From assembly GCF_003790525.1 (NCBI RefSeq), contig NZ_CP033635.1: a stretch of DNA of 64,000 bases, one strand, 5' to 3'. Shown piece by piece: positions 1,351-59,772 of this stretch. The notes beneath the pieces were generated by a model. The model was not told where the DNA came from. It did no database searches and was given only the letters and a program-made list of their open reading frames with translations. The DNA comes from Escherichia coli (GTDB lineage: Bacteria; Pseudomonadota; Gammaproteobacteria; Enterobacterales; Enterobacteriaceae). The number at the start of each line of letters is the position of its first letter. The stretch's first letter is position 1. Made by a program: the position numbers and the translations under genes.

Positions 1351-3645
1351 ATGAAGGTAGATATTGATACCAGCGATAAGCTGTACGCCGACGCATGGCT
1401 TGGCTTTAAAGGTACGGACTGGAAAAACGAAATTAATGTCCGCGATTTTATTCAACATAACTATACACCGTATGAAGGTGATGAATCTTTTCTCGCCGAA
1501 GCAACGCCAGCCACCACGGAATTGTGGGAAAAAGTGATGGAAGGCATCCGTATCGAAAACGCAACCCACGCGCCGGTTGATTTCGATACTAATATTGCTA
1601 CCACCATTACCGCTCATGATGCGGGATATATTAACCAGCCGCTGGAAAAAATAGTGGGCCTGCAAACGGATGCGCCATTAAAGCGTGCGCTGCATCCGTT
1701 CGGTGGCATTAATATGATTAAAAGTTCATTCCACGCCTATGGTCGTGAAATGGACAGTGAATTTGAATATCTGTTTACCGATCTGCGTAAAACCCATAAC
1801 CAGGGCGTATTTGATGTTTACTCACCGGATATGCTGCGCTGCCGTAAATCTGGCGTGCTGACCGGTTTACCAGATGGCTATGGTCGTGGGCGCATTATCG
1901 GTGACTATCGCCGCGTGGCGCTATATGGCATCAGTTATCTGGTGCGTGAACGCGAACTGCAATTTGCCGATCTCCAGTCCCGTCTGGAAAAAGGCGAGGA
2001 TCTGGAAGCCACCATCCGTCTGCGTGAGGAGCTGGCGGAACATCGTCGTGCGCTGTTGCAGATTCAGGAAATGGCGGCGAAATACGGTTTTGATATCTCC
2101 CGTCCGGCGCAGAATGCGCAGGAAGCGGTGCAGTGGCTCTACTTCGCTTACCTGGCGGCAGTGAAATCACAGAACGGCGGCGCAATGTCTCTTGGCCGTA
2201 CGGCATCGTTCCTCGATATCTACATTGAGCGCGACTTTAAAGCTGGCGTACTCAATGAACAGCAGGCACAGGAACTGATCGACCACTTCATTATGAAGAT
2301 CCGTATGGTGCGCTTCCTGCGTACGCCGGAATTTGATTCGCTGTTCTCCGGCGACCCAATCTGGGCGACGGAAGTGATCGGCGGGATGGGGCTGGACGGT
2401 CGTACGCTGGTGACCAAAAACTCTTTCCGTTATCTGCACACCCTGCACACTATGGGGCCAGCACCGGAACCAAACCTGACCATTCTGTGGTCGGAAGAAT
2501 TACCGATCGCCTTCAAAAAATATGCCGCACAGGTGTCTATCGTCACCTCTTCCTTGCAGTATGAAAACGACGATCTGATGCGTACTGACTTCAACAGCGA
2601 CGATTACGCGATTGCCTGCTGCGTTAGCCCGATGGTGATTGGTAAGCAAATGCAGTTCTTTGGTGCACGCGCTAACCTGGCGAAAACGCTGCTCTACGCA
2701 ATTAACGGCGGGGTGGATGAGAAGCTGAAGATTCAGGTCGGGCCGAAAACAGCACCATTGATGGACGATGTGCTGGACTACGACAAAGTGATGGACAGCC
2801 TCGATCATTTCATGGATTGGCTGGCAGTGCAGTACATCAGCGCGCTGAATATCATCCACTACATGCACGACAAGTACAGCTATGAAGCCTCGCTGATGGC
2901 GCTGCACGATCGTGATGTTTATCGCACGATGGCATGCGGCATCGCGGGCCTGTCGGTGGCGACGGACTCCCTGTCTGCCATCAAATATGCCCGCGTGAAA
3001 CCAATCCGTGACGAAAACGGCCTGGCGGTGGACTTTGAAATCGACGGCGAATATCCGCAGTACGGTAACAACGACGAGCGCGTAGACAGCATTGCCTGCG
3101 ACCTGGTTGAACGCTTTATGAAGAAAATTAAAGCGCTGCCAACCTATCGCAACGCCGTCCCTACCCAGTCGATTCTGACTATCACTTCTAACGTGGTGTA
3201 CGGCCAGAAAACCGGTAACACGCCGGACGGTCGTCGCGCCGGAACACCGTTCGCACCGGGCGCTAACCCGATGCACGGTCGTGACCGCAAAGGTGCGGTA
3301 GCCTCGCTGACGTCGGTGGCGAAACTGCCGTTCACCTACGCCAAAGACGGTATTTCGTACACCTTCTCAATTGTCCCGGCGGCGCTGGGCAAAGAAGATC
3401 CAGTACGTAAAACCAACCTTGTCGGCCTGCTGGATGGGTATTTCCACCACGAAGCGGATGTCGAAGGCGGTCAACACCTCAACGTCAACGTAATGAATCG
3501 GGAAATGCTGCTGGATGCCATCGAGCACCCGGAAAAATATCCTAACCTGACAATCCGTGTCTCTGGCTACGCCGTGCGCTTCAACGCACTGACCCGTGAA
3601 CAGCAGCAGGATGTTATTTCACGTACCTTTACCCAGGCGCTCTGA
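1351..3645 (+). CDS. tdcE: 2-ketobutyrate/pyruvate formate-lyase (glycyl radical enzyme)
   Basis: 764-aa [27 protein letters not shown]...; PFL-family sequence; position in tdc operon. Confidence 0.92.
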
Positions 3646-3658
3646 CGCCGGAGGATGT

Positions 3659-4048
3659 ATGAAAAAGATTATCGAAACGCAACGTGCCCCAGGCGCAATC
3701 GGCCCTTATGTTCAAGGCGTTGATTTAGGCAGCATGGTCTTCACCTCCGGGCAAATTCCGGTTTGCCCACAGACCGGTGAGATCCCGGCTGATGTGCAAG
3801 ATCAGGCGCGTTTAAGCCTCGAAAACGTCAAAGCGATCGTGGTTGCTGCCGGGCTGAGCGTGGGCGATATCATCAAGATGACCGTGTTCATCACCGATCT
3901 GAATGATTTTGCCACCATCAATGAAGTCTATAAGCAGTTCTTCGATGAGCATCAGGCGACCTACCCGACCCGGAGCTGTGTGCAGGTCGCGCGTTTGCCG
4001 AAAGATGTGAAGCTGGAAATTGAAGCCATCGCAGTACGTAGTGCGTAA
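3659..4048 (+). CDS. tdcF: RidA/YjgF-family enamine/imine deaminase
   Basis: 129-aa product MKKIIETQRAPGAIGPYVQG... from ATG at 3659, inside ORF 3596..4048. Confidence 0.9.
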   Translation: MKKIIETQRAPGAIGPYVQGVDLGSMVFTSGQIPVCPQTGEIPADVQDQARLSLENVKAIVVAAGLSVGDIIKMTVFITDLNDFATINEVYKQFFDEHQATYPTRSCVQVARLPKDVKLEIEAIAVRSA

Positions 4049-4119: not shown

Positions 4120-5484
4120 ATGATTAGTGCATTCGATATTTTCAAAATTGGGATTGGTCCCTCCAGTTCGCATACCGTGGGGCCAATGAATGCCGGAAAA
4201 AGTTTTATTGATCGGCTGGAAAGTAGCGGCTTATTAACCGCGACGAGCCATATTGTGGTCGATCTGTACGGGTCGTTGTCACTGACGGGCAAAGGCCATG
4301 CCACGGATGTCGCCATCATCATGGGACTGGCAGGAAACAGTCCGCAGGATGTTGTCATTGATGAGATCCCTGCATTTATAGAGTTAGTGACGCGCAGCGG
4401 GCGGCTGCCAGTGGCATCTGGTGCGCATATTGTTGATTTTCCTGTAGCAAAGAACATTATCTTCCATCCCGAAATGTTGCCTCGCCATGAGAACGGAATG
4501 CGGATCACTGCCTGGAAGGGACAGGAAGCGCTATTAAGCAAAACCTATTACTCTGTCGGCGGCGGGTTTATTGTCGAAGAAGAACACTTCGGCCTGTCGC
4601 ACGATGTCGAAACGTCCGTACCTTACGATTTCCACTCAGCAGGAGAACTGCTGAAAATGTGTGATTACAACGGCCTGTCTATTTCTGGCCTGATGATGCA
4701 CAACGAGCTGGCGCTGCGCAGTAAAGCGGAAATTGATGCCGGTTTTGCCCGTATCTGGCAAGTGATGCATGACGGTATTGAACGCGGGATGAACACTGAA
4801 GGCGTGCTGCCTGGTCCGCTCAATGTGCCGCGCCGTGCCGTAGCGCTGCGTCGTCAGTTGGTTTCCAGCGATAACATCTCTAACGATCCGATGAATGTCA
4901 TCGACTGGATCAACATGTACGCGCTGGCGGTTAGTGAAGAAAACGCAGCTGGCGGGCGCGTGGTAACGGCACCGACTAACGGTGCGTGCGGCATTATTCC
5001 GGCAGTGCTGGCTTATTACGATAAGTTCCGTCGTCCGGTAAATGAGCGGTCAATTGCCCGCTATTTTCTTGCAGCCGGGGCTATTGGCGCGCTGTATAAA
5101 ATGAACGCCTCCATCTCTGGCGCGGAAGTCGGCTGTCAGGGGGAGATTGGCGTGGCCTGTTCAATGGCGGCGGCAGGGTTAACTGAACTACTGGGCGGCA
5201 GTCCGGCGCAGGTATGCAATGCGGCGGAAATCGCGATGGAGCATAACCTTGGGCTGACCTGCGATCCGGTTGCCGGACAGGTACAAATCCCGTGCATTGA
5301 ACGTAATGCCATTAATGCCGTGAAAGCAGTAAACGCCGCGCGGATGGCGATGCGCCGCACCTCGGCACCGCGTGTTTCACTCGATAAAGTGATCGAGACG
5401 ATGTATGAAACCGGCAAAGATATGAACGATAAATACCGCGAAACATCACGCGGAGGACTGGCTATTAAAGTGGTCTGCGGCTGA
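4120..5484 (+). CDS. tdcG: L-serine dehydratase (iron-sulfur dependent)
   Basis: ORF 4114..5484; [23 protein letters not shown]... is the typical L-serine dehydratase N-terminus. Start may be 4114 or 4120. Confidence 0.88.
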
Positions 5485-12789: not shown

Positions 12790-12905
12790 GCAAACGCAAA
12801 ACTGCCTGATGCGCTATGCTTATCAGGCCTACGAGGTTTCTGCAATGTATTGAATTTGCATGTTTTTGTAGGCCGGATAAGGCGTTCACGCCGCATCCGG
12901 CATGA
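12790..12905. repeat. REP element cluster
   Basis: gcctgatgcgctatgcttatcaggcctac ... taggccggataaggcgttcacgccgcatccggca REP units between yqjG and yqjF. Confidence 0.55.
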
Positions 12906-22760: not shown

Positions 22761-24059
22761 TTAATGTTGCGGTGCGGGATCGTTATGTGATTCCTGCGCC
22801 ACCTCAATCGCCGGTTTGTTCTGCAATACCGTCCAGATAACCAGTGCCCCCAGTAGGTCGAATACCGCAAGTACTGCGAACAGCGGGCTAAAGCCGATGG
22901 TGTCAGCCAGTGCACCAACCACCAGAGCAAAGAGCGTACTTGCCAGCCATGCGGACATCCCGGTTAAACCGTTCGCCGTCGCCACTTCGTTACGACCGAA
23001 CACGTCAGAAGAGAGCGTAATCAGTGCGCCAGACAGTGCCTGGTGAGCAAAACCACCGATACACAGCAGCATAATCGCGACATACGGGTTGGTGAACAGA
23101 CCGATCATACCCGGGCCAATCATCAGCACAGCACCCAGCGTTACGACCATCTTACGGGAAACGATCAGGTTCACACCAAACCAACGCTGGAACAGCGGCG
23201 GCAGGTAACCACCGAGGATACAACCGAGGTCAGCAAACAGCATCGGCATCCAGGCAAACATCGCGATCTCTTTCAGGTTAAAGCCGTAAACTTTAAACAT
23301 GAACAGCGGGATCCACGCGTTAAAAGTACCCCATGCCGGTTCTGCCAGGAAGCGCGGCAGCGCGATACCCCAGAACTGACGGTTGCGCAGGATCTGACCA
23401 ACGGACATTTTCTTCGCTGTGTCAACCTGGTGCTGGGCTTCCTGACCATTAATAATGTAGTCGCGTTCTTCATCGGTCAGATGTTTCTGGTCGCGCGGAT
23501 GCTTGTAGAAAATCAGCCATGCCATCGCCCAGATAAAGCTCAACGCACCGGAGATGATAAATGCCATCTGCCAGCTGTGCATCACGATTGCCCATACCAC
23601 CAGCGGCGGCGCAATCATCGCACCAATCGAAGAACCTACGTTAAAGTAACCTACCGCGATGGAACGCTCTTTCGCCGGGAACCATTCGGAGCTGGCTTTC
23701 AGACCCGCCGGAATCATCGCGGCTTCCGCGGCACCGACCGCACCACGAGCAACCGCCAGGCCACCCCAACTACCTGCCAGCGCGGTTGCACCACAGAACA
23801 CGGCCCACAGTACAGCAAACATTGCATAACCGATTTTCGTACCCAGCACATCCAGTACATAACCCGCTACCGGTTGCATGACCGTATAAGCAGCAGAATA
23901 CGCTGCGATGATATAGGAATACTGTTGGGTGGAGATGTTTAACTCTTCCATCAGAGTTGGCGCAGCTGCCGCCACAGTGTTACGCGTCAGGTAACCAAGC
24001 ACGGTGCCGAGCGTCACCAGTGCGATCATATACCAACGTAACCCTTTAATTTTACGCAT
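22761..24059 (-). CDS. exuT: hexuronate transporter (MFS)
   Basis: ORF 22761..24179; start taken at MRKIKGLRWYMIALVTLG (432 aa) by K-12 recall; the 40-codon N-terminal extension is rejected. Confidence 0.88.
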   Translation of the reverse strand: MRKIKGLRWYMIALVTLGTVLGYLTRNTVAAAAPTLMEELNISTQQYSYIIAAYSAAYTVMQPVAGYVLDVLGTKIGYAMFAVLWAVFCGATALAGSWGGLAVARGAVGAAEAAMIPAGLKASSEWFPAKERSIAVGYFNVGSSIGAMIAPPLVVWAIVMHSWQMAFIISGALSFIWAMAWLIFYKHPRDQKHLTDEERDYIINGQEAQHQVDTAKKMSVGQILRNRQFWGIALPRFLAEPAWGTFNAWIPLFMFKVYGFNLKEIAMFAWMPMLFADLGCILGGYLPPLFQRWFGVNLIVSRKMVVTLGAVLMIGPGMIGLFTNPYVAIMLLCIGGFAHQALSGALITLSSDVFGRNEVATANGLTGMSAWLASTLFALVVGALADTIGFSPLFAVLAVFDLLGALVIWTVLQNKPAIEVAQESHNDPAPQH

Positions 24060-51387: not shown

Positions 51388-52152
51388 ATGAATAACTCCC
51401 CCCGCTACCCGCAGCGCGTTCGCAATGATCTGCGCTTCCGTGAACTGACTGTGTTACGCGTTGAGCGCATCAGCGCCGGTTTTCAGCGCATTGTCCTCGG
51501 CGGCGAGGCGCTGGACGGTTTTACGTCGCGCGGCTTTGACGATCACAGCAAACTCTTCTTTCCTCAACCTGACGCTCACTTTGTGCCGCCAACGGTAACG
51601 GAAGAGGGCATCGTCTGGCCGGAAGGACCACGCCCACCGTCGCGTGACTATACGCCGCTGTATGACGAACTACGCCATGAACTGGCGATCGATTTCTTTA
51701 TTCACGACGGTGGGGTCGCCAGCGGCTGGGCGATGCAGGCGAAACCGGGCGATAAACTTACGGTGGCAGGTCCGCGCGGTTCGCTGGTGGTGCCGGAAGA
51801 TTACGCGTATCAGCTGTATGTCTGCGATGAATCCGGAATGCCCGCACTGCGCCGCCGCCTGGAAACGTTGAGCAAACTTGCCGTTAAACCGCAAGTTAGT
51901 GCGCTGGTTAGCGTGCGGGATAACGCCTGTCAGGATTATCTCGCGCACCTTGATGGTTTTAATATCGAATGGCTGGCACATGATGAGCAGGCGGTAGATG
52001 CGCGTCTGGCGCAGATGCAAATCCCTGCCGATGATTACTTCATCTGGATAACCGGCGAAGGCAAAGTCGTTAAGAATTTAAGCCGCCGCTTTGAAGCGGA
52101 ACAGTATGACCCACAGCGGGTACGTGCAGCGGCTTACTGGCACGCAAAGTAA
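51388..52152 (+). CDS. yqjH: NADPH-dependent ferric-siderophore reductase
   Basis: 254-aa ORF MNNSPRYPQRVRNDLRFRELTVLRVERISAGFQRIVLGGEALDGF... Confidence 0.88.
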   Translation: MNNSPRYPQRVRNDLRFRELTVLRVERISAGFQRIVLGGEALDGFTSRGFDDHSKLFFPQPDAHFVPPTVTEEGIVWPEGPRPPSRDYTPLYDELRHELAIDFFIHDGGVASGWAMQAKPGDKLTVAGPRGSLVVPEDYAYQLYVCDESGMPALRRRLETLSKLAVKPQVSALVSVRDNACQDYLAHLDGFNIEWLAHDEQAVDARLAQMQIPADDYFIWITGEGKVVKNLSRRFEAEQYDPQRVRAAAYWHAK

Positions 52153-52168
52153 CTGATATATATAAAGA

Positions 52169-52196
52169 AAAAGGCTGACGATTTCTCGTCAGCCTT
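52169..52196. terminator. bidirectional rho-independent terminator (yqjH / ileX)
   Basis: Hairpin aaaggctgacg-atttct-cgtcagccttt flanked by A-run on one side and T-run on the other. Confidence 0.5.
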
Positions 52197-52205
52197 TGCT
52201 ATGTC

Positions 52206-52253
52206 TGGTGGCCCCTGCTGGACTTGAACCAGCGACCAAGCGATTATGAGTCA
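52206..52253 (-). other. ileX: 3' partial copy (about 47 nt) of tRNA-Ile2 (ileX, CAU anticodon): island att junction
   Basis: Minus-strand read gives ...GACTCATAATCGCTTGGTCGCTGGTTCAAGTCCAGCAGGGGCCACCA, i.e. anticodon loop, T-arm, acceptor 3' strand and CCA. The 5' half (acceptor/D-arm) is absent; the upstream sequence diverges. Confidence 0.75.
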
Positions 52254-52378
52254 TGAGGCAAGTTCGTTCTATATTGTTTTTGTTTGTTCGTGATTGCTTT
52301 ATTAGTTGTTTGTAATCAATAAATTATGTGATTTTCCCTGTCTCCGCTTGGTTCCGTTTTTTCTTCATTGTACGATCG

Positions 52379-52402
52379 TTACCTGACCCATTACCTGACC
52401 CA
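52379..52402 (+). repeat. tandem 12-bp direct repeat (ttacctgaccca x2) upstream of int
   Basis: Two exact adjacent copies about 47 bp upstream of the integrase ATG, within the island-side arm of the att junction. Confidence 0.6.
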
Positions 52403-52448
52403 AAATCACGAGTTATTCTGATTGTTACTGGTTTAGAAAAGAGGTTCT

Positions 52449-53765
52449 ATGGCCGTCAATCTTACTGAAACAGCCATCCGAGCATTGAAAGCAAAAAAGA
52501 CATCGTTCTATGTCTGGAGCAACAGCTCTCAACGTGGCACTGGACGACTTGGTGTCAAAGTTCAGCCTTCTGGCAGCAAGATTTTCTATTTCCGCTATTA
52601 CGTGGAAAAAGGGAAAAAAGAAAGATTCATTCAATTGGGTATATGGCCTGAGATGAAACTGGCCACAGCGAATGAACTGACAAAAAAGTATGGTGCCTGG
52701 CTCATTGAAGGAAAGGATCCCCAGGCAGAACTGGAACGACAACAGTTTGCAGAACAGCAGCGGATACAACTCCATCAATCACAGGGCTCATTTGAAGCAT
52801 TGATTCATGGTTATGTTAACAAAATGAAAATTGATAATAAGAGGACATGGCAGGATGTTCTGAAACGCCTTGAAAATGAATGCTATACAGTGATCCCCCG
52901 TGAAACTAAAGCTAAAGATGTGACTTCCGGACAGATTAAACATATCCTGGCCGGGATCATTCAGCGCGGTGCTGTGGTTCACTCTAACCGGATCCGTTCT
53001 TACCTGATGGCTGCATTTAACTATGGACTGAAAGCAGATAACGATCCGATGAACACAAGTGTAGGGATTACTTTTGGGCTGGAGGCAAATCCGGTGTCAG
53101 TGATACCGAAACAGTCATCTGCTGAAAAAGTCGGTGATACCTGGCTGACACTTGAAGAGTTGCGTTTTCTAATGGAACATTTTGCTGAAGCAACCAACGT
53201 TGGATTATTGATGCAACATTTGATCCGATTCTGTATCTATACCGGAGGGCAACGTCCTTTCGAAATGATCGCCAGTCAGTGGTGTGATGTTGATTTTCAA
53301 CAAAAAACGCTGCTGGTGACTGCTGATGTCTCTAAAAATAAACGAGAGCATTTGATACCGTTGACTGAATCAGCATTACAGGAATTATCCTGTGTGCAGG
53401 AGTTAACAAAAGAAAAATCCAGCCCTTACATTTTTCCACTTTCGACTAATGGTAAGCGTCCGGTTCGTACGGACAGTCTGGCTCGCGCTATCATGTATTT
53501 CCGGGCTTTTAATCCTGACTTTAAAATTTTTACAGCACGTGACTTACGTCGGACCTGTAAAACGTTAATGGGAGAAGCTGGGATCAGTAAGGAAATCCGC
53601 GATCGTATTCAAAATCATGCGTTGAACGATGTCAGTTCAAAACATTATGATCGATACGATTATTTGCCAGAAAAACGCAGAGCACTTGAGATCTGGGAGG
53701 ACCGGGTTAATAACTATCAACAGCAAACAGGCAATAATGTTGTCAATCTGTTTGGCAGAAGGTGA
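52449..53765 (+). CDS. P4-type tyrosine recombinase / phage integrase
   Basis: 438-aa ORF MAVNLTETAIRALKAKKTSFYVWSNSSQRGTGRLGVKVQPSGSKIFYFRYYV... (typical N-terminal arm-binding region of P4-like integrases); the C-terminal region contains R, H and Y residues compatible with a tyrosine-recombinase catalytic core; adjacent to the tRNA fragment. Confidence 0.9.
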   Translation: MAVNLTETAIRALKAKKTSFYVWSNSSQRGTGRLGVKVQPSGSKIFYFRYYVEKGKKERFIQLGIWPEMKLATANELTKKYGAWLIEGKDPQAELERQQFAEQQRIQLHQSQGSFEALIHGYVNKMKIDNKRTWQDVLKRLENECYTVIPRETKAKDVTSGQIKHILAGIIQRGAVVHSNRIRSYLMAAFNYGLKADNDPMNTSVGITFGLEANPVSVIPKQSSAEKVGDTWLTLEELRFLMEHFAEATNVGLLMQHLIRFCIYTGGQRPFEMIASQWCDVDFQQKTLLVTADVSKNKREHLIPLTESALQELSCVQELTKEKSSPYIFPLSTNGKRPVRTDSLARAIMYFRAFNPDFKIFTARDLRRTCKTLMGEAGISKEIRDRIQNHALNDVSSKHYDRYDYLPEKRRALEIWEDRVNNYQQQTGNNVVNLFGRR

Positions 53766-56957: not shown

Positions 56958-57185
56958 ATGTGGAAGCCGTTAAGAGATGAGAACCGTTTATCAATTTTGA
57001 AGATCTATGGATACACCTGTGACAGACTGGTACGAGAAAAGGAACGCCAGAAAATTACGTCTATTTCTCGTTCACAAGCCTGGAAACTGGAACGTGAAGG
57101 AAAATTCCCGCCACGTAAAACTATTGGAAAGAAATCCTGTGGGTGGTTATTAAGTGATCTATTGTGGTGGATTAGTCAGTATTAA
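56958..57185 (+). CDS. AlpA-family phage/island transcriptional regulator
   Basis: 75-aa ORF MWKPLRDENRLSILKIYGYTCDRLVREKERQKITSISRSQAWKLEREGKFPPRKTIGKKSCGWLLSDLLWWI: typical AlpA/Prophage_CP4-57 regulator pattern; strong SD (aaggag). Confidence 0.75.
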   Translation: MWKPLRDENRLSILKIYGYTCDRLVREKERQKITSISRSQAWKLEREGKFPPRKTIGKKSCGWLLSDLLWWISQY

Positions 57186-58776: not shown

Positions 58777-59041
58777 CATTTTATAGTCCTTGTAGCTATT
58801 GGCAATGGAGTTATAAATACATGTGCGTTGGATAGGTAATATATATTATATCTGTGATGTATAGTATATGTGTAATGATGGATATGATGTACTAATAGAG
58901 CTAATGGTATTCTGATACCAAATAATTAGTTGTGTGTAGATCATAACTCTGTTTAATGTTTTAGAACGTTCTAATGTAACTGTGTAACATCATCCTGTTC
59001 TCTAATGTAACAATAGGCAGTAGCGTTTTTCTTAATTGACG

Positions 59042-59157: not shown

Positions 59158-59772
59158 ATGATTACGATTGAAACTCTTTACGGTGAATGTCATGAGGCTC
59201 ACGGGTTAAAAATAAGAAACCAGGTGAATAACCTCTTCCAGAAACATCCCAGAATAACGGCAATACGGGTGGATCTCCATTATCCTCCCGTGATTGACAA
59301 CGGGGATACCATTACCTGTTTTCCTAACCTGAGTCCCGGAGAGATATCTCGTTTCCGTAACTCGCTGAATGCGAAAATTAATGCAGATCAACACCGTAAA
59401 AAACAACAAGGCAAACGCACCTACGCAACGTCGGTTTGTATTATCTGGGCGAAAGAATATACGCAGTCCTTTAAATGTCATTATCACGTCTGCCTTTTTT
59501 TTAACAAAGACGCCTATTACCACCTGGGAGACTATGAGCGCTCTGACACCCTGAGAGGGTTAATTACCGGAGCCTGGTACAGTGCCTTAGGGTTAGAACT
59601 GGAAGATCACCAGGGACTAGTTCATTTCCCTGCTAATGGACGTTACATCCTGGATATTAACGATCCTGATTTCCCTGAGCAATATCAGCGCTTATTGGCA
59701 CGTCTGGATTATCTGACGAAGCTCGACACTAAAGCATCAGGCCAGCGTAACTTTGGCTACAGCGGTTTTTGA
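59158..59772 (+). CDS. HUH-endonuclease (rolling-circle Rep / inovirus Gp2-like, YagK/YfjJ-type) protein
   Basis: 204 aa; contains KCHYHVCLFF (H-u-H motif) and a downstream DYLTK (YxxK-type candidate catalytic Tyr); genomic context matches CP4-type prophage modules. Confidence 0.55.
   Translation: MITIETLYGECHEAHGLKIRNQVNNLFQKHPRITAIRVDLHYPPVIDNGDTITCFPNLSPGEISRFRNSLNAKINADQHRKKQQGKRTYATSVCIIWAKEYTQSFKCHYHVCLFFNKDAYYHLGDYERSDTLRGLITGAWYSALGLELEDHQGLVHFPANGRYILDINDPDFPEQYQRLLARLDYLTKLDTKASGQRNFGYSGF

Follow-up and report, generated by a model that had tools for sequence, protein, structure and literature searches.

The window analysed here, a stretch of 64,000 nucleotides (64 kb) from Escherichia coli, holds the E. 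coli gene nfeF (yqjH), which ends at 52152, followed by the displaced 3′ part of the tRNA gene ileX and then by a genomic island. The features of this junction, with their positions in the window, are as follows.

52170-52197: native hairpin with a 12-bp stem between nfeF and ileX; chromosomal and present in the empty K-12 site
52206-52252, minus strand: displaced 3′ 47 nt of native ileX (tRNA-Ile2, CAU); the chromosomal half at the int-proximal junction
52233-52252: 20-bp block CGACCAAGCGATTATGAGTC in the ileX anticodon stem-loop region
52270-52313, plus strand: T-rich tract, 28 of 44 bases T (64%), moderately conserved among 25 aligned arms
52314-52326, plus strand: IHF-consensus site AATCAATAAATTA, an exact match to WATCAANNNNTTR
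52348-52376, plus strand: candidate int promoter, with −35 TTGGTT (52348-52353), a 17-bp spacer and −10 TACGAT (52371-52376)
52379-52390, plus strand: 12-mer unit 1, an exact copy of TTACCTGACCCA; candidate arm-type integrase site
52391-52402, plus strand: 12-mer unit 2, an exact copy of TTACCTGACCCA; candidate arm-type integrase site
52449-53765, plus strand: int, a 438-aa tyrosine integrase with arm-DNA-binding, central and catalytic domains
56958-57185, plus strand: AlpA-family protein of 75 aa (PF05930, E = 2.5e-14); candidate excisionase or directionality factor

The empty K-12 site, in which the order is nfeF-ileX-mug, served as the reference for aligning the junction. Identity to native ileX stops at 52252, so the island-specific DNA begins at 52253 and the arm up to int is 196 bp long, instead of the 195 bp from 52254 given in the first-pass annotation. 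ARAGORN found no complete tRNA in the window, and both ARAGORN and Rfam are blank at this locus. Elsewhere in the window, Rfam reports the sRNA ES036 (CssrF) at 12825-12865 on the minus strand (38.4 bits vs. a gathering threshold of 37.6), which is unrelated to the island. When the two att copies at the island's junctions are compared, perfect identity is confined to the 20-bp block in the anticodon region, and we infer that strand exchange would take place within 52233-52252, since this is the sole stretch that is perfectly identical between both junction copies.

The island is carried by ~455 of 5426 complete E. coli genomes (about 8%), and among E. coli genomes the int-side arm is found in ~457 and the tRNA-side arm in 472. 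In strain SCEC020022 the island is ~45 kb long and ends at an intact ileX adjoining mug, and its tRNA-proximal end carries a CP4-like module (Ag43, DUF932, antirestriction, RadC/JAB, YeeU/CbtA and DUF4942). A relative of the island lies at another chromosomal place in E. coli ET776 (L006, record ~1.16 Mb), with an arm that is 73% identical, an int gene followed by a Fic gene, and a tRNA-Ile-like fragment alongside that differs by one base (CCCTTG). The target of this relative is probably ileY, and if so, both tRNA-Ile2 genes are used.

The two tandem 12-mer copies which the first-pass annotation had placed at 52379..52402 were recovered exactly by sequence search, in the local context gtacgatcg TTACCTGACCCA TTACCTGACCCA aaatcac. 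Their placement upstream of int also stands, although the gap to the ATG at 52449, estimated earlier as about 47 bp, is 46 bp. The 64-kb window contains no other exact copy of TTACCTGACCCA, and its seven matches with two mismatches are scattered and unrelated. No other 10-15-bp unit occurs in the window as an exact two-copy tandem; 100 first-order Markov simulations give a mean of 0.08 such duplications per window, and Tandem Repeats Finder (TRF) returned just four further arrays, all of them weak. By itself the repeat is only mildly improbable; its weight comes from comparative evidence. As a separate observation, an imperfect 18-bp tandem repeat, GTAATGTATAGTATATCT, occupies 58836-58877 (2.3 copies, 79% matches), in an intergenic region of the island upstream of a YagK/YfjJ-domain gene at 59158.

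The far junction of the island lies outside the window, and the data for it are from near-identical complete E. coli genomes. The first-pass annotation had pointed to this other junction as the place in which to look for the same 12-mer, and an identical tandem pair is indeed present there. In SCEC020022 the 24-bp far pair is exact, lies at 23517-23540 of the extracted locus (L002) in the same orientation as the int-side pair, and follows the stop codon of the DUF4942 gene by 17 bp; the 3′ end of ileX is 57 bp away from it. The distance from the int-side pair to the core is 126 bp, and that from the far-side pair to the 20-bp block is 84 bp; the arm 12-mers thus flank the core on either side without adjoining it, and their sequence is unlike that of the core. 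In E. coli AHM8C160RI (L009, ~601-699), the tRNA-side arm has one 12-bp unit, resulting from a clean 12-bp deletion. A search of the rebuilt attachment site with up to 3 mismatches gave only one additional unit copy, the weak match TTAGCTAACCC in the terminator hairpin supplied by the island, which we treat as chance because it is not conserved in diverged arms.

The intact ileX at the far junction is a hybrid, in which the T-arm is altered by a compensatory pair (GCTGG/CCAGC to GTTGG/CCAAC) together with two loop bases, and the native ileX T-arm is found in the displaced fragment adjoining int. Comparison of L002 23541-23673 with window 52170-52252 shows that the island provides a replacement ileX 3′ half and its own downstream hairpin, and for this reason the rebuilt ileX is intact and has a terminator-like structure. 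In the circular form predicted from these two junctions, the tRNA side would present the TTACCTGACCCA pair, 84 bp comprising the replacement tRNA 3′ end and terminator, and the 20-bp crossover block. On the int side, the block would be followed by 61 bp, the IHF site, 52 bp, the pair seen in the window, 46 bp and int.

The comparison of homologous arms, as proposed in the first-pass annotation, showed the pair to be invariant in diverged arms. We aligned 25 int-side arms, 24 of them distinct, from about 20 genera and with integrases that are 84-100% identical. In all 25, both units keep the 11 bases TTACCTGACCC unchanged (100% conservation, compared with a mean of 86% for the rest of the arm), and the twelfth base of the unit is its sole variable position. 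Among 24-bp windows along the arm, conservation peaks in those starting at 52375-52378, which consist almost entirely of the repeat. Within E. coli, int-side arms occur at every identity level from 100% to ~73%, and tRNA-side arms at levels down to 75%. The pair is intact in six aligned int-side arms with diverged flanks, and likewise in six tRNA-side arms, including those that are 75-79% identical, except in one strain that has lost one unit.

A wider scan for integrase homologues, made with an alignment query and one genome per species, yielded 80 loci, with identities of 33-98%. Every one of the 18 scanned loci whose integrase is 84-87% identical carries TTACCTGACCC at about −71 and −59 relative to int; their genera include Yersinia, Erwinia, Brenneria, Phytobacter, Kluyvera, Buttiauxella, Kosakonia, Enterobacter, Cedecea, Photorhabdus, Siccibacter and Citrobacter. 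In these 18 loci a third copy, inverted, follows at about −36, with a single mismatch in one locus, whereas the E. coli/E. albertii lineage of the window is without this copy and has a different sequence there; no inverted third copy is found between the pair and the ATG (52403-52448), a segment that has been replaced in this lineage. The inverted copy, GGGTCAGGTAA, lies 12 bp past the pair and can be seen in L006 (~2650-2660), L007 (~2622-2632), L008 and L016-L031. If it were transcribed, it would form a strong 5′-UTR hairpin with a direct unit (−29 kcal/mol, z = −3.4), and the RNA fold of the window's own 5′ region is no better than that of shuffled sequences (z = +0.75).

More distant integrases, ~57% identical, come from Pantoea, Erwinia, Chimaeribacter, Buttiauxella massiliensis and Silvania. 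These loci have the same core and no TTACCTGACCCA-type motif; the matching position holds a pair of its own, TTACGTCACC(T/C)(G/A) CTACATCACCCA, i.e., TTACGTCACCYR/CTACATCACCCA, with a second unit that begins CTACATCACCC, and in two of them (L040 and L041) an inverted copy lies downstream of the pair. The N-terminal 100 residues of these integrases are 49-50% identical to those of the island's enzyme, compared with 59-62% for the rest of the protein. A metagenome scan for this variant gave 39 matches, and in 34 of these the tRNA core precedes the pair by ~140-150 bp and an integrase-like ORF follows it. One further match (L100) has int downstream, with an upstream sequence too short to show the core. 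Another (L125) is a single tRNA-side arm and is the only far-arm case for this group. Three matches (L124, L127 and L135), which by eye appear to lie in unrelated and possibly coding sequence, are read as chance because neither a tRNA core nor int is nearby. In L125 (reverse complement, ~1740-1790), there are three direct copies (TACGTCACCCAG, an 8-bp gap, then TTACGTCACCCA CTACATCACCCG), followed by a hairpin, a tRNA-Ile 3′ fragment and then yet other foreign sequence, which suggests another tandem island array.

The pattern extends to distant relatives, which carry tandem units of their own, namely TTAGATCACCC, CAAGTACACTT, TTGTTTGACTA, TACTTGACTAA, AACTACACCCA, TTACTTGACCCG and TTACCGCCAGTG, and, in Methylomonas and Pseudomonas, units of period 11 or 13. 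A tandem array with a period of 11-13 bp is found within −200..+30 of int in 60 of 78 loci of the family, against 0.048 expected from the remaining sequence of those loci. Across the integrase family, arm units such as TTACCTGACCC, TTACGTCACCC, TTACTTGACCC, TAACTACACCC and TTGTTTGACTA, among others, differ at few positions. A locus of Salinivibrio sharmensis (L047, 2670-2990) contains two related islands in tandem at one tRNA-Ile site, where a far arm with two copies of TTACCTGACCCA, a hairpin and a tRNA fragment is directly adjoined by an int-side arm with two copies of TTGTTTGACTA and an inverted copy. This Salinivibrio int-side arm has the layout of a pair plus an inverted copy, as in the 84-87% group and in L040 and L041, and the arrangement suggests that the two arm-site specificities do not cross-react. 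It is possible, though we hold this only tentatively, that arm units have drifted together with the integrase N-terminal domain into mutually orthogonal specificities and that the loss of the third site in the window's lineage has led to looser control of int.

Between the core and the pair, the first-pass annotation had noted a T-rich tract with repeated TGTTT and TTGTT units near 52270..52310, together with an expectation of IHF sites in this arm. The composition count bears out the tract, with TGTTT at 52275, 52281 and 52307 and TTGTT at 52274, 52280, 52284 and 52306. However, these units do not themselves contain an IHF consensus, and the perfect consensus is found immediately 3′ of the tract, at 52314-52326. 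The predicted IHF site is separated from the core by 61 bp and from the repeat pair by 52 bp. The window contains 6 matches to WATCAANNNNTTR vs. 3.1 expected, a count that carries no argument, so that the case for this site is made by position and conservation. Among the 25 aligned arms, the AATCA core and the TT are invariant, A52319 and A52326 are conserved at ~90% and the four N positions are variable, and every scanned locus of the 84-87% group has an exact consensus at about −136. The T-rich tract is probably the A/T-rich flank of the IHF site, and it may also hold phased sites for the excisionase (AlpA).

The candidate int promoter ends 2 bp before the first repeat and is a weak match to the consensus (7/12); a promoter scan of 52100-52600 at a threshold of 9/12 found none. 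At the homologous position, a Yersinia locus of the 84-87% group (L016) has TTGGTT-17-TATTAT and three loci of the ~57% group have TTGTTC-17-TATCAT, and the aligned int-side arms show little or no variation in TTGG, in the last T of TTGGTT and in TTGTAC..ATC. Across the whole family, the best promoter matches are scattered relative to the arrays outside the three closest groups. The candidate promoter would start transcription inside unit 1, and since the int-side pair is directly downstream of the likely −10 box, bound integrase should block transcription of its own gene. Given the weak promoter candidate and the reliance on analogy with other systems, we put autorepression of int via the 12-mer pair, which the first-pass annotation had raised as a possible function of the repeats, at about an even chance. 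Piazzolla et al. reportedly found in 2006 that the N-terminus of P4 Int is sufficient for autorepression. P4 Int is described as repressing its own promoter, Pint, which contains an IHF site, and IntI of PAI I536 as autorepressed and modulated by IHF (PMC7286903). Autorepression has been demonstrated for IntS and IntF as well (PMC2951348).

The closest known parallel in layout is the attachment site of phage P4, whose record (NC_001609) annotates 12-bp pairs called 'attP arm sequence repeat' flanking a 20-bp core. The annotated P4 arm repeats are as follows.

3942-3965: int-side pair
4151-4174: pair on the other side of the core
3915-3926: inverted copy over the int start

One further copy is annotated inside P4 int. 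In both P4 and the island, a 20-bp core within a tRNA gene is thus flanked on either side by a direct 12-bp pair, of which the int-side one is just upstream of int, at pair-to-core distances of 112 vs. 126 bp on the int side and 53 vs. 84 bp on the far side. Between the core and the int-side pair P4 has, as read by eye, an imperfect IHF-consensus-like sequence, WATCAANNNNTGC, in the manner of the island's site at 52314-52326. P4 and most relatives of the island share an inverted extra copy near the int start, which the window's lineage is without, and P4 and the island both encode a PF13356 integrase and a small protein of the AlpA/Vis type. However, the P4 units, TTGGGGGCAT(A/C)(A/T), are unrelated in sequence to TTACCTGACCCA, and P4 Int is 22% identical to the island integrase over 410 residues, so that the domain architecture is shared and the clade is distinct. 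The targets differ too (leuX for P4 and ileX for the island), as do the elements, one being a satellite phage and the other a ~45-kb CP4-like island. We regard the island's attachment site as one that works like the attP of P4 without belonging, by sequence, to the P4 Int subfamily.

The attP of phage lambda has arm sites P1, P2 and P′1-P′3 and IHF sites H1, H2 and H′. The island resembles lambda in its heterobivalent type of integrase, in candidate sites that occupy both arms at a spacing of roughly one helical turn, and in the predicted bending by IHF of the DNA between arm and core, whereas the integrase subfamily, the number of sites and their arrangement differ, and int of lambda is not transcribed from within attP. 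In the KplE1 IntS and CP4-6 IntF systems (Panis et al. 2010, PMC2951348), arm-type sites lie beside the −10 box, as the 12-mers would beside the candidate −10 box of the island, and the 'OD' shape of ptwF-intF of CP4-6, with int diverging from the tRNA fragment, is shared with the island (PMC2951348). Such a layout leads one to expect negative autoregulation. However, the integrases of KplE1 and CP4-6 are unrelated or distant to that of the island, and the island's promoter is a weak sequence candidate; IntF, which we considered as a close relative, is only 25% identical. In K-12, the thrW fragment of CP4-6 diverges from intF (minus strand; L014 ~3560-3590 and L015 ~1505-1527). A motif of ~23 bp, ATTTACTTACACCAGC(A/T)GTTACA, has one copy at the intF end, within the annotated start of that gene, and another in the arm next to thrW; both are likely arm sites of an unrelated integrase.

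The same repeat unit appears in a recently described element, IECsakMK101 of Cronobacter sakazakii MK_10, a tRNA-Ile element with CP4-6-like genes for which circular excision was detected by outward PCR (PMC12757443). The authors reported internal repeats 5′-TGGGTCAGGTAA-3′ at both termini (PMC12757443, December 2025), and this sequence is the reverse complement of the window's unit, although the element differs from the island in host genus and cargo. They speculated that these repeats 'may be involved in regulation of recombination' (PMC12757443). Our literature search returned no paper that assigns or tests the TGGGTCAGGTAA/TTACCTGACCCA repeats as arm sites.

The N-terminal domain of the island integrase matches PF13356 (Arm-DNA-bind_3; residues 5-97, E = 2.1e-14). 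Taken with this domain, the proposal of the first-pass annotation that the repeats are arm-type integrase sites gains support from the far pair, the invariance of the units, their co-variation with the integrase and the layout of the P4 attP. Reading from sequence, we consider it very probable that the 12-mers serve the integrase as arm-type sites, in an attachment site of P4-like design where an IHF site separates pair and core. The integrase would use the 12-mers as docking sites for cutting the island into and out of ileX: its N-terminal arm-binding domains would hold the arm pairs while its catalytic domains hold the core, and IHF would bend the intervening DNA so that arm and core meet, as they do in lambda and P4. 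AlpA-family proteins are the usual excisionase type of such islands, and the one encoded here would bias the reaction toward excision.

This last protein might instead be the one that binds the 12-mers. Tandem direct repeats are typical targets of small winged-helix excisionases, a candidate for which is encoded by the island, and in 12 related loci AlpA homologues that are 69-76% identical follow int at a distance of 2-4 kb, although this co-occurrence fits either reader. We nevertheless find binding by AlpA in place of the integrase unlikely, for excisionase sites are normally on one arm and the 12-mer pairs are on both, the layout matches that of the annotated attP arm repeats of P4, and the unit changes in step with the divergence of the integrase N-terminal domain. 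In L006 and L008, moreover, the pair is intact and no AlpA homologue was detected in the ~2.5 kb downstream of int, a point that is weak given the usual distance of 2-4 kb.

In another reading, the int-side pair would serve purely as a transcriptional operator for int and play no part in recombination, with the far-arm copy as a relic; the pair does abut the candidate −10 box, and autorepression is documented in related systems. A relic would, however, decay like its flanks, and the far pair, which is beside neither int nor an evident promoter, is kept in the 75-79% identical arms and across orders, as the Salinivibrio far arm shows, which makes this reading highly unlikely. That the duplication is a functionless product of chance or replication slippage is less probable still and can be practically dismissed. 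There are only two copies, and slippage does occur, since the far arm of L009 lost one unit by its 12-bp deletion, but the simulated expectation is ~0.08 per window, the pair is invariant on both arms and across about 20 genera, and 60 of 78 relatives have lineage-specific pairs of their own.

The analysis brings out no new principle; the biology is ordinary and P4-phage-like, and its use is in annotation. It defines the probable functional attachment site of a widespread island, with relatives in many Enterobacterales and Vibrionaceae: a core in the anticodon stem-loop of ileX, one IHF site and two arm-site pairs. The exact boundaries of the island are now available for annotation, and the 24-bp pair beside a tRNA-Ile 3′ fragment offers a signature by which island ends can be found. 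The loss of the inverted third site in the window's E. coli lineage might loosen the control of int. If the arm specificities are indeed orthogonal, several related islands could reside in tandem at one tRNA gene without cross-excision, and the natural variants of integrase and arm site form a set for testing how arm specificity is encoded.
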